16,465 nt of DNA from the IMG/VR virus record IMGVR_UViG_3300014720_000027, positions 1 to 16,465 of that record; one strand, written 5' to 3'. The notes under the pieces are model-generated. The model searched no databases. It was given only the letters and a program-made list of their open reading frames with translations, and was not told the DNA's origin. This stretch comes from a virus (lineage: Duplodnaviria; Heunggongvirae; Uroviricota; Caudoviricetes). Of this stretch, positions 1 through 16,465 are shown piece after piece (position 1 is the first letter of the stretch; each line of letters begins with the position of its first letter). The translations under genes and the position numbers were made by a program.

Positions 1-492
1 ATAGCCCGGTCTAATATGTGGCGTACTATTTGGGTTTCAAGCAAAAAGATAGAACTTTTTAACCGAGCCGCAGTTGATTTAACCAGAGACCAACTCACCC
101 TTTGTTCTTATTCACATATGTATGATTCTGTGCATGAAAGCCCAGAAAGCCCTAGCGAAAAGGTTATAGAGGACGATGACTGTTTAGATGGCTGGTTTAT
201 ATTCCAAAGACGTAAACATGAAAAGGATAAGAAGATGCAGGAAACCGAAGAACTTATTAAAAATCCCAAGATTAAAAACTCTAAAGAGGTTTTTGTTATG
301 GCTAAAAATAAACAAGAGGCAGAATCTATTAATGATCTTAATAATGAATTTTCAAAAGCTCTTGTTCAGCAAAGAAAACAAATCATACAAGAAAAAGGGT
401 CTGCTAAAGATACTGATTTTGTTGACGTTCAAACAGAATTACAAATGGAGAGGCAACAGGCTTTTATGAATAAAATGAAAGGTAGGAAATAA
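1..492 (+). CDS. Phage hypothetical protein, 5'-truncated (possibly tail-assembly related)
   Basis: The frame is open from position 1 (ATA GCC CGG TCT AAT ATG TGG = IARSNMW...), and the ATG at 16 has no clear Shine-Dalgarno, so the gene probably starts upstream of the window. Motif YDSVHESPESPSEKVIEDDDCLDGW is followed by charged helical sequence. The TAA (490-492) overlaps the next ATG. Function is not identifiable. Confidence 0.75.
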   Translation: MARSNMWRTIWVSSKKIELFNRAAVDLTRDQLTLCSYSHMYDSVHESPESPSEKVIEDDDCLDGWFIFQRRKHEKDKKMQETEELIKNPKIKNSKEVFVMAKNKQEAESINDLNNEFSKALVQQRKQIIQEKGSAKDTDFVDVQTELQMERQQAFMNKMKGRK

Positions 493-836
493 TGGAAGAT
501 GATTTTAATGAAATGTTAAAACTTTCTTTAGAAAGAAAAAGGTTTAAAGAAGAGGGGCTTAAAGAAGTCTCAAAAAATAAACTTTATCAAGCTGCTAAGA
601 AAAAGATTTTAACTACGATGATTGGGGCCTTAGACTCGATAGAAAAGAGTTTTGGGTTTTTATGGAGCAGAGAAGAAACGACAGAACAAAAACAAATGCG
701 AATCATTTATGATCAAATTCGCTCTGAGATTTTAGATAAAGGTAATACCCAGATTCGTAATTTGGAAGCCGAGTTTAGTAATTATGATATAGTATTTAAA
801 AAATACACTACAAAGATTCCGTTTAAGAAAGGATAA
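492..836 (+). CDS. Phage hypothetical protein (114 aa, predominantly helical)
   Basis: ORF coupled to the upstream gene by TAATG, with purine-rich AAGGTAGGA upstream. It fills the space between neighbours. No family recognised. Confidence 0.8.
   Translation: MEDDFNEMLKLSLERKRFKEEGLKEVSKNKLYQAAKKKILTTMIGALDSIEKSFGFLWSREETTEQKQMRIIYDQIRSEILDKGNTQIRNLEAEFSNYDIVFKKYTTKIPFKKG
828..833 (+). promoter_or_regulatory. Shine-Dalgarno site for the gene starting at 842
   Basis: AAAGGA at 828-833, 8 nt before ATG 842. Confidence 0.6.
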
Positions 837-841
837 AAAAG

Positions 842-14584: not shown

Positions 14585-16116
14585 TGGCGATAATTTATAC
14601 TATCAGTGGACAGGAATTTGAAATAGGATCAGGTTTCTCTAATCAGGGTATCGCTGAAAGTCCAGCCATTGTCAATCCTTTTCCTAAATATTCTATTTCT
14701 AGAGAATTTATTAGTGCCACAGACGATTCCCACTTAGGAAATAGGTATAATATCACTGTTTCTGGGCGTTTAATAGTTCCTTCTTCTGCTGATGCTACTA
14801 CGAGCGGAGCACAACAAAACGCTTTGCACAAACAAATGATTTGGCATCTTCAAACCTTGGCAGATCAATCACATAATTTAGGAAAATTAGAAATTGTGCC
14901 GCATGGCGGTTTAGATAGGCCGTTTATATTTGTAGATGCCCGTCTTAGAAATATAGAATTTCCAGAGCAGGATGATCAAAATTTAGGAGTTTTATACTCT
15001 GACTACACTTTTCAATTTGAGGCATATTTAGAAGCTAGTGATAATAATGAGAGTTTTTGTTTAAAAATTAATTCCGCTGAAGAAAATTGGGAATTGGCAT
15101 TAAACGACAATGAAACTTCTTATTATTCTCAAGCCGATGGAACGCCTTACAAAACATATACGTTAACACATACCGTGTCTGCAAACGGTATTAAAAGTAT
15201 AAACAATGCGGCTACCGAGATAACTCCCGCTTGGAAAAATGCCGCTGAGTGGGTAAAAACAAGGCTTGTATCTAATTTATCTTTACCAATTAGCTCTGAT
15301 GTAGCTAATAATTCAGATAGAATAGTTGCTTCATCTTATTTTTATCCCACAAAATTTGATAGTGTTGTTTCTGTGTTATGCCCGGATTTATCTGGAACTG
15401 GATATTCTTATTATAATCATTTGAGAGTGCCAACATGCAATATTTCTGAGGGCTCATATTCAATCACAGAAACTTGGTTCATTTCTAATATGCCAGCAAC
15501 AATGGATATGGAAATAGAGACTAGCGAAGAAGAATCTGGCATCACAACCATGACTCTTAGTGGGACTATTAATGGATTAGACGGAACCGCCGTAAATAAT
15601 AATGCGATATCTAAGATATCTAATGCTGAAATTGTTTTAGCTAATTTAGAAACTAAAGCATACAACATGCTTTCTTCTTATTACCCGACTAATACGGGCG
15701 GATTTACTCTTCAAAATGTCGTTAGACAAAAAAGCATAGGAAGAAATAAAGGCACAGGTATTATTACTTTTAGTTATACTTACAATGATCAAGTCGTTTT
15801 CGTGCCCGGCGCTATTTCTTCTACTCTAAAAGTAAATGATAATAATTTAAATAAAGAAGTTCAAACTATAGCTATAATACCTATTATAGGAAAAATAGAT
15901 GGTCCAATTATTCAAAATATGAATACTACCCCGGAATCTAGTCGTTCTTTAGAAATTACGGCAACTATGAATAGAAACAACAGAGCATCTAAGCCAAACT
16001 TGGTTTCTATTTATAATTCATATAAATTATCAAATTCTTTCGTAAGGGCTTTTGATGAAACTTGGGAGCCTTATACTGGAGCGTATTCTGTAAATATAGA
16101 ATGGGTTAAACAATGA
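14584..16116 (+). CDS. Putative distal tail (Dit)/tube-fold baseplate protein, 510 aa, with four internal repeats
   Basis: TAATG-coupled ORF, beta-strand rich, lying between the TMP region and a hub-like gene. Units end in similar G-x-(Y/I)-(S/T)-x-x-x-x-(W/Y/F) strands: DYTFQFEA, EGSYSITETWF, TGIITFSYTYND, TGAYSVNIEW. The product is inferred. Confidence 0.55.
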   Translation: MAIIYTISGQEFEIGSGFSNQGIAESPAIVNPFPKYSISREFISATDDSHLGNRYNITVSGRLIVPSSADATTSGAQQNALHKQMIWHLQTLADQSHNLGKLEIVPHGGLDRPFIFVDARLRNIEFPEQDDQNLGVLYSDYTFQFEAYLEASDNNESFCLKINSAEENWELALNDNETSYYSQADGTPYKTYTLTHTVSANGIKSINNAATEITPAWKNAAEWVKTRLVSNLSLPISSDVANNSDRIVASSYFYPTKFDSVVSVLCPDLSGTGYSYYNHLRVPTCNISEGSYSITETWFISNMPATMDMEIETSEEESGITTMTLSGTINGLDGTAVNNNAISKISNAEIVLANLETKAYNMLSSYYPTNTGGFTLQNVVRQKSIGRNKGTGIITFSYTYNDQVVFVPGAISSTLKVNDNNLNKEVQTIAIIPIIGKIDGPIIQNMNTTPESSRSLEITATMNRNNRASKPNLVSIYNSYKLSNSFVRAFDETWEPYTGAYSVNIEWVKQ

Positions 16117-16465
16117 GCATAGATATAGCGGCTGCTCCAAAATTATTTGGCGGATACATTGAGAGTCTTTCTTCTGGCGCTGGATACGGCGCTGATGGCG
16201 GGTCATGTCAAATATCTCTTGTTTTTGAAAATGATGGTCCTCTTAGACCTTATGATTTAGATAGAAATTTTCCTGAGCTAGGAACTGCCGTTGGTATAAA
16301 ATGGGGCGAGTTTGAATTTGGGGGAATATTACAAAGATTTACCCATAAACGATCTTTAGACGGTTATAAATACGATGTGATTATAGAATCGCCCGGTAAA
16401 TGGCTCGACGGTGTTCAAATTATTACAGAGGGATTTCAGGGCACAACTTTTCCAGCAATTACTCA
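16113..16465 (+). CDS. 3'-truncated baseplate hub / tail-associated (Tal, gp27-like) protein N-terminus (not in ORF track)
   Basis: ATG 16113 overlaps the TGA of the upstream gene, and the frame is open to the window end: MSIDIAAAPKLFGGYIESLSSGAGYGADGGSCQISLVFENDGPLRPYDLDRNFPELGTAVGIKWGEFEFGGILQRFTHKRSLDGYKYDVIIESPGKWLDGVQIITEGFQGTTFPAIT. The pattern P-x-LG-x-x-V-x-x-x-x-G-x-x-x-F-x-G-x-(V/L) followed by beta strands resembles hub-protein N-terminal barrels. Confidence 0.7.
   Translation, partial: MSIDIAAAPKLFGGYIESLSSGAGYGADGGSCQISLVFENDGPLRPYDLDRNFPELGTAVGIKWGEFEFGGILQRFTHKRSLDGYKYDVIIESPGKWLDGVQIITEGFQGTTFPAIT

Follow-up and report, generated by a model that had tools for sequence, protein, structure and literature searches.

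The 16,465-base window described here (the whole stretch of DNA that was analysed) corresponds to bases 1-16465, the first fifth, of the linear 80,465-bp IMG/VR record IMGVR_UViG_3300014720_000027, hereafter G000, a phage contig that is 55% complete according to CheckV. This phage is also present in the JGI metagenomes 3300013132 and 3300013126 and in the sequencing runs SRR11050241 and SRR11049220. Throughout the window there is no copy of CCWGG (CCAGG or CCTGG), which is the restriction site of EcoRII, MvaI, and BstNI and also the Dcm methylation site. Family matches identify the window as a phage tail module, with its genes on the plus strand. The tape measure protein gene (1764-9095, plus strand, 2443 amino acids) matches PF10145 and tape-measure PHROGs and carries six of the ten Pro-Gly codon pairs of the window. 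It is followed on the same strand by an 1830-amino-acid tail protein gene (9092-14584), a 510-amino-acid gene (14584-16116), and a 1044-amino-acid gene starting at 16113, all three of which have no family match. Outside the window, G000 encodes a DnaE-type polymerase, DnaB, primase, recombinase, ribonucleotide reductase, and many glycosyltransferases, and the window is probably from a lytic-type, siphovirus-like phage with a genome of about 150 kb. There is no megablast match of the window to cultured phages and ARAGORN identified no tRNA genes on the loci scanned. The closest cultured relatives, among Bacillus and other phages, are distant (about 30% identity for DnaE and 26% for TerL); at 26-31% identity, these matches do not permit any inference of the host.

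An automated count finds 0 CCWGG in the window, against 13.3±3.7 in dinucleotide shuffles (none of 200 shuffles as low as 0) and 12.2±2.5 in synonymous-codon shuffles of the window genes (minimum 5 in 500). The same is true of the whole of G000, where a third-order Markov model predicts 56 copies and within-gene synonymous shuffles 55.4±5.5, and where the word is missing from all three reading frames (29.8, 12.3, and 12.8 expected). In a preliminary description of this DNA, made by eye, neither CCAGG nor CCTGG had been seen and none of roughly 90 CAGG and CTGG tetramers was preceded by C. The count bears this out, with 49 of each tetramer, and the effect is stronger than had been stated. The short palindromes noted as present are indeed there in normal numbers (GATC 54, GGCC 35, CCGG 45, AGCT 102, and CTAG 61 in the window, at 36.7% G+C content, or GC), and over G000 GATC, CTAG, AGCT, and GGCC are at expectation (CTAG 222 against 205).

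The description had also allowed that CCWGG might prove to be near expectation, which is not so (0 against 13.3±3.7), or that other words might be equally depleted. Among the pentamers of G000 none is, with CCWGG at z=-10.3 and the next most depleted at z=-5.8, but many 6-bp palindromes are equally absent, as described below.

Codon choice and the maintenance of a CCWGG-free genome

All ten in-frame Pro-Gly pairs in the window use CCC (6) or CCG (4) for proline, giving CCSGG (CCCGG or CCGGG) where CCWGG was possible, while the remaining Pro codons of the window are mostly CCA or CCT (119, or 70%, against 52 CCC or CCG). The positions first reported for these pairs are exact. In the tape measure gene they are CCC GGC at 3207-3211 and 8070-8074, CCG GGC at 3249-3253, 4113-4117, and 4254-4258, and CCC GGG at 6906-6911, which contains two overlapping CCSGG. 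On the same, plus strand there follow CCG GGC at 10463-10467 in the 1830-amino-acid tail protein gene, CCC GGC at 11276-11280, CCC GGC at 15805-15809 in the 510-amino-acid gene, and CCC GGT at 16392-16396 in the 1044-amino-acid gene.

Over the whole of G000, proline is CCC or CCG in every one of the 48 Pro-Gly pairs, although 74% of the remaining Pro codons are CCA or CCT. Codons of the form NCC are used in none of the 72 pairs in which Ser, Pro, Thr, or Ala precedes Trp, against a baseline of 13.5%, and NCT is over-used there (48/72). Where Gln is flanked by C and G it is always CAA (11/11) and never CAG. CCWGG is therefore excluded purely through synonymous codon choice. Pro-Gly dipeptides number 48, against 55 expected by composition, and thus the protein sequences have been left unaltered.

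That the exclusion is being actively maintained can be seen from a complete relative, G009, which has 74% nucleotide identity to G000. If the context-free substitution frequencies observed between G000 and G009 (26% divergence) are applied to the G000 sequence, about 36 CCWGG are predicted for the 58.6 kb of G009 that is homologous to it. In fact 0 are present, and seven control pentamer pairs have counts of 21-124. This is direct evidence of ongoing purifying selection against CCWGG. Together with the 0 against 55.4±5.5 of the synonymous shuffles, it upholds the earlier suggestion of strong selection against this site.

Other purged words and an enriched hexamer

CCWGG is not the only word that has been removed. 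Of the 64 6-bp palindromes, 19 are absent from G000 and two more are present in single copy, such that the set of 21 amounts to 2 copies where 126 are expected. GRCGYC is similarly reduced, to 2 copies against 19.1. Among 6-mers with an expectation of at least 5 in G000, 8 of the 48 palindromic words are absent, as against 13 of the 2000 non-palindromic ones, 8 of which have CCWGG inside them. The purged words are therefore restriction-like, being mainly palindromic in the manner of Type II sites, and not arbitrary. The view that the effect is specific to one site holds among 4- and 5-mers, but not for these 21 palindromic hexamers and GRCGYC.

A few non-palindromic words are also depleted in G000, namely CACGAG/CTCGTG (0 against 6.4), CCCGAG/CTCGGG (0 against 6.5), ACGTGA/TCACGT (0 against 8.4), and GGGGAC/GTCCCC (0 against 7.2), with GCAGGC/GCCTGC (1 against 12.5) and ACGTG/CACGT (8 against 30) nearly so. 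Some of them may be sites of a Type IIS-like or degenerate kind.

The four residual copies of banned words, which are the sole CTGCAG of the contig (8095-8100, 13.4 expected), the sole AGGCCT (8614-8619, 7.0 expected), and the two remaining GRCGYC (2859-2864 and 5874-5879), are all inside the tape measure gene. Positions 3331-11551 of the window are without a nucleotide-level match in G009. This suggests a recently imported mosaic segment, in which the purge is still incomplete.

The list of banned words differs between relatives. A more distant relative, G001 (DnaE 49% identical to that of G000, 43% GC), shares about 18 of the purged hexamers of G000, with CCATGG, CTTAAG, GCATGC, and GRCGYC banned privately in G000 and TCCGGA, CCCGGG, and GGGCCC banned privately in G001. 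A further CCWGG-free record, L008 (IMGVR_UViG_3300030098_006123), is also without GGWCC, an AvaII-type site (0 against 13.1), which G000 and G001 both keep.

While CCWGG is missing, CCSGG is in excess. The window has 27 copies, where about 26 loci had been counted by eye, since those at 6906 and 6907 overlap. Dinucleotide shuffles give 7.4±3.0 (18 at the most), and for the coding sequences the count is 26 against 6.2±2.3 in synonymous shuffles. In G000 as a whole there are 102 CCSGG against 33.6 under the plain synonymous null (48, 23, and 31 by frame, against 18.2, 7.1, and 8.1). When the synonymous swaps are barred from creating any banned word, the expectation rises from 33.6 to 68.9±3.7. 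About half of the excess is therefore compensatory, in the broad sense of the forced Pro-Gly CCS together with the other bans, and to that extent the compensatory excess first proposed is borne out. The remainder is in frames that offer no synonymous replacement, as CCWGG can be exchanged synonymously for CCSGG only in frame 0 (Pro-Gly), and it is mostly GCCCGG/CCGGGC.

This hexamer is the most over-represented 6-mer of G000, with 58 copies against 8.6 in synonymous shuffles (z=18.5) and 19.2±2.8 under the constrained null; other all-G/C pentamers are enriched too, at 1.45-fold only. In the window it is found at positions 4, 2075, 3206, 3249, 4113, 4254, 8069, 9519, 9867, 10463, 11275, 12622, 14184, 15380, 15804, and 16391. 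In G009 there are 196 copies against about 13, 15 times composition, in every frame and at equal density in non-coding DNA. The enrichment extends to other low-GC phages that avoid CCWGG, and neither the 40% GC avoiders nor the non-avoiders show it. Conservation between G000 and G009 is about twice as frequent for GCCCGG sites (18/48) as for other, comparable G/C hexamers (52/303).

A Chi-like or polar role for GCCCGG was considered and rejected, as the strand counts are even (28 against 32 in G000, 95 against 101 in G009) and do not switch along the complete genome. An origin of the CCSGG and GCCCGG excess in repair of the very-short-patch type was likewise rejected, with CTSGG/CCSAG at expectation (104 against 102.9). 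None of the one-step neighbours of GCCCGG is depleted, other than those that contain CCWGG, so there is no depleted precursor word, and a literature search on GCCCGG over-representation returned nothing relevant. There is some small chance that GCCCGG/CCGGGC, which is not a palindrome, is positively favoured in the DNA of the G000/G009 lineage as a selected, 'wanted' word, which could be the recognition site of a DNA-binding or DNA-modifying protein of the phage or its host.

Distribution in related phages and host leads

DnaE-based and marker-based scans recovered 38 related loci from IMG/VR. In these the trait is binary, with CCWGG either essentially zero (0, or 1 in one locus) or in normal numbers. 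By composition, which is the basis of the expectations for whole records, CCWGG is at 0 in G000 (80 kb, 46 expected), G009 (158.5 kb, with 122-bp terminal repeats, 119 expected), G001 (84.5 kb, 103 expected), G011 (110 kb, 109 expected), G013 (78 kb, 40 expected), and G012 (71 kb, 74 expected), and a phage contig from the bin of a SAR202 metagenome-assembled genome (MAG) has 1 in 60 kb, where 68 are expected. For these seven avoiders this is a total of 1 CCWGG in 641 kb, against about 559. The three non-avoiding sister phages have 103-128 sites each, these being G003 (161.5 kb, 119 against 82), G004 (150 kb, 128 against 110), and G002 (137 kb, 103 against 74), and are 100%, 100%, and 92% complete by CheckV.

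In a DnaE tree (FastTree) the avoiders form one well-supported clade, with one extra avoider, L015, set apart from it by the non-avoider L023. There have therefore been two or more gains of the trait, or one gain and one loss, and CCWGG avoidance tracks something beyond simple descent. Elimination of CCWGG and about twenty restriction-type palindromes across the clade is statistically overwhelming, and it is real.

Neither G000 nor the complete G009 has a C5 (PF00145) or N4/N6 (PF01555) methyltransferase in six-frame searches, which did not extend to other methyltransferase families or hypermodification pathways, and no C5 methyltransferase was found in twelve further related records that were searched. 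Several glycosyltransferases are encoded in the phage. Screening of G009 open reading frames for those with homologues in distant avoiders and none in the three non-avoiders yielded glycosyltransferase-like proteins, two DUF1501 proteins, a sigma-like protein, a capsid-like protein of 233 amino acids, and several small unknowns.

Of the 19 IMG/VR loci with a relative of the 233-amino-acid protein (contig 65348-66049; L003:13348-14049, minus strand), 18 have 0 CCWGG and one has 1, and the protein was not found in five non-avoider records. It has a conserved C-terminal YKPITGM and weak language-model matches (0.77) to capsid-protein fragments, and a structure prediction from a 14-sequence alignment reached a mean predicted local distance difference test (pLDDT) score of 30.0, too low for a fold comparison. 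As a nuclease candidate it was set aside, its sequence and the weak capsid-fragment matches suggesting a structural lineage marker instead. Another avoider-specific protein, of 277 amino acids, has a GT-A glycosyltransferase-like N-terminus with a DDD motif; the related-locus search gave no relatives of it. Two adjacent DUF1501 (sulfatase-like) genes, L116:632-1894 and L116:1981-3258 (G009 139632-142258), are present in G009 and in distant CCWGG-free relatives and in none of the three non-avoiders. Such a pair is unusual phage cargo and is a possible clue to the host group.

The ribonucleotide reductase of G000 (contig 62534-64738; L003:10534-12738, minus strand) is 69% identical to that of G001, while DnaE is just 49% identical, and no homologue was found in the non-avoider G003. 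The gene was probably exchanged or acquired apart from the replication core. When GTDB genomes were scanned with it, a match was found on a 64-kb contig in a published SAR202 MAG (G014 contig C13, VFHP01000013.1; L079-L081), with a reductase 70% identical to that of G000. This is the CCWGG-poor phage contig mentioned above, which is of the G001 type. No other bacterial bin was found to hold a related phage contig. The presence of the contig in this bin, which may be a binning error or a hint of the host, is a weak lead, and one for the 40% GC sub-clade only. Proteins with the EcoRII-C domain are present in 12 of 151 sampled genomes of the order to which this MAG belongs, which is not specific evidence.

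Explanations for the absence of the sites

Three causes had been put forward at the outset, these being host restriction, mutational loss through 5-methylcytosine, and a phage-encoded nuclease. Mutational decay would require that CCWGG be methylated by a Dcm-type enzyme and its inner C deaminated to T, eroding the site with no selection upon it. The 1.56-fold over-representation of coding-strand CTTGG, and the disproportionate use of NCT before Trp, fit C-to-T change as one route of loss. However, CTTGG is the only deamination product that is raised, and it is the synonymous NCT-TGG replacement; CCAAG, CTAGG, and CCTAG are not raised, and the products together (CTWGG/CCWAG) are at just 1.18 times expectation. 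Decay is contradicted because the 48 Pro-Gly sites have been lost at the central W, beyond the reach of deamination, where C-to-T change would instead have turned Pro into Leu or Gly into Asp or Glu. Nor would decay be expected to be so total (0 of about 55 in G000, 1 in 641 kb among relatives), the searches of the phage gave no C5 methyltransferase, and the purged palindromes that lack a CCWGG core are left unexplained. Loss through 5-methylcytosine is therefore very improbable indeed.

Methylation might instead act at one remove. Were the hosts to methylate CCWGG with a Dcm-type enzyme, whether or not they also had the endonuclease, phage DNA so marked could be cut by Type IV enzymes in the next host, and the sites would be purged. 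The resulting sequence pattern would be that of classical avoidance, and the own contigs of the SAR202 MAG (41% GC, similar to the phage contig) have 30-34 CCWGG per 20 kb against about 21, some 1.5 times composition, as in genomes with Dcm and very-short-patch repair, of which E. coli is the familiar case. Yet there is no C5 methyltransferase in that MAG, which is incomplete, membership of the phage contig in its bin is weak evidence for the host, and every further purged hexamer would call for a similarly indirect argument. This explanation is unlikely. About equally unlikely, or very slightly less so, is that the phage lineage uses a CCWGG-cutting nuclease of its own on host DNA and keeps its own genome free of the site. 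A vertically inherited trait of this sort would suit the uniform absence of CCWGG over a deep clade in which the hexamer bans vary by lineage, and the enzyme might be a small unannotated open reading frame or the non-tape-measure insert in the tape measure protein (window 3327-4181). CCWGG-free G009 has a weak homologue of the insert in its own tape measure (27% identity, E=8e-9), the non-avoider G003 has no homologue of it, and the fourth language-model match of the insert, with a score of 0.81, is to a Tox-REase-7 cluster. That score is below the level of reliability, however, as one third of shuffled proteins reach 0.8, and the insert has no Pfam match at E<=1 and no PDB sequence match at E<=10. 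It is also fast-evolving, its 27% identity to be set against 86% in the flanking tape-measure core, and a single-sequence structure prediction, mostly helical, is of low confidence (pLDDT 37.7), likewise too low for a fold comparison. A six-frame search for MvaI_BcnI found nothing, although its control was equally silent. The phage-encoded nuclease has no positive evidence in its favour; there is no recognisable nuclease family among the genes shared by avoiders and missing from the three non-avoiders, and a single nuclease would be unable to explain some 20 other purged palindromes.

Host restriction is the best fit of the three causes first offered, given that restriction-like palindromes have been purged, that this was done synonymously, and that the state is maintained. 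Very likely this is classical restriction-site avoidance, with host Type II enzymes, which we infer from the words that are missing, as the selective agent. The phage DNA would be unmodified at the purged words and would escape host Type II restriction through the absence of recognition sites. An enzyme of the EcoRII, MvaI, BstNI, or PspGI kind that cuts CCWGG would have been the most constant threat to the clade, with about twenty 6-bp palindromes and GRCGYC marking additional host enzymes that would differ among the sub-lineages. Mutations that create banned words would be removed by selection, leaving synonymous rules in which Pro-Gly is CCS-GGN, Ser, Pro, Thr, and Ala before Trp are never NCC, and Gln in the context C_G is CAA.

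Several observations weigh against this interpretation. Restriction systems tend to be patchily distributed and short-lived, whereas this word is missing throughout a deep clade, with marker identity down to 36% and GC of 33-43%, and this uniformity is a little surprising if avoidance is purely host-driven. A methyltransferase or nuclease could sit in the missing half of G000, which is only 55% complete, although the complete G009 is without PF00145 and PF01555. Lastly, the GCCCGG excess is not predicted by restriction avoidance.

If host restriction is indeed responsible, the banned words together are a fingerprint of the restriction enzymes that an aquatic host possesses. Matching them to the methylomes of co-occurring MAGs, or to the restriction-modification genes that these encode, could assign hosts to this uncultured clade of siphophages of about 150 kb. 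The site-free and site-normal sister phages are a natural contrast in which restriction pressure could be dated and measured. The purge also skews codon and codon-pair usage, which should not be misread as translational selection or horizontal transfer.

Avoidance of restriction sites, or of palindromes, in phages was reportedly described by Sharp in 1986 and by Gelfand and Koonin in 1997. Non-temperate double-stranded DNA phages are known to eliminate sites in response to orthodox Type II enzymes (Rusinov et al. 2018, PMC6286503). The present case is similar in that orthodox Type II-like palindromes are fully eliminated, through synonymous codons, in a phage in which no PF00145 or PF01555 methyltransferase was found. 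It differs in that the breadth is extreme, covering CCWGG, about 21 hexamers, and GRCGYC, in that it concerns an uncultured clade rather than one isolate, and in that the host enzymes are deduced. The Anabaena and Nostoc cyanophages A-1, A-4L, and N-1, which are said to show counter-selection of host restriction sites, resemble these phages in being aquatic and in missing many 5-6 bp sites, and their hosts are restriction-rich. The specificities of GRCGYC (AcyI/AhaII type) and CTTAAG (AflII type) are known in cyanobacteria. Unlike the case of those cyanophages, nothing here points to a cyanobacterial host, the closest cultured relatives being as distant as described above.

Coliphage T7 and its relatives have few EcoRII (CCWGG) and Dam/Dcm sites, and T7 also relies on Ocr. 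CCWGG is thus depleted in a lytic phage in both cases, but T7 keeps a few sites, where here none is left, either in the 80 kb of G000 or in a complete genome of 158.5 kb. In E. coli, the combined action of Dcm and Vsr is reported to have shaped oligonucleotide bias (Bhagwat and McClelland, 1992). The two together make CCWGG commoner and CTAG rarer. The same word and the same idea of a link to methylation are involved here, with the opposite outcome, in that CCWGG has been erased and CTAG is normal. The pattern is a textbook one of anti-restriction, which leaves existing concepts unchanged, and the added interest is in its breadth, in the binary pattern across the clade, and in the enrichment of GCCCGG.

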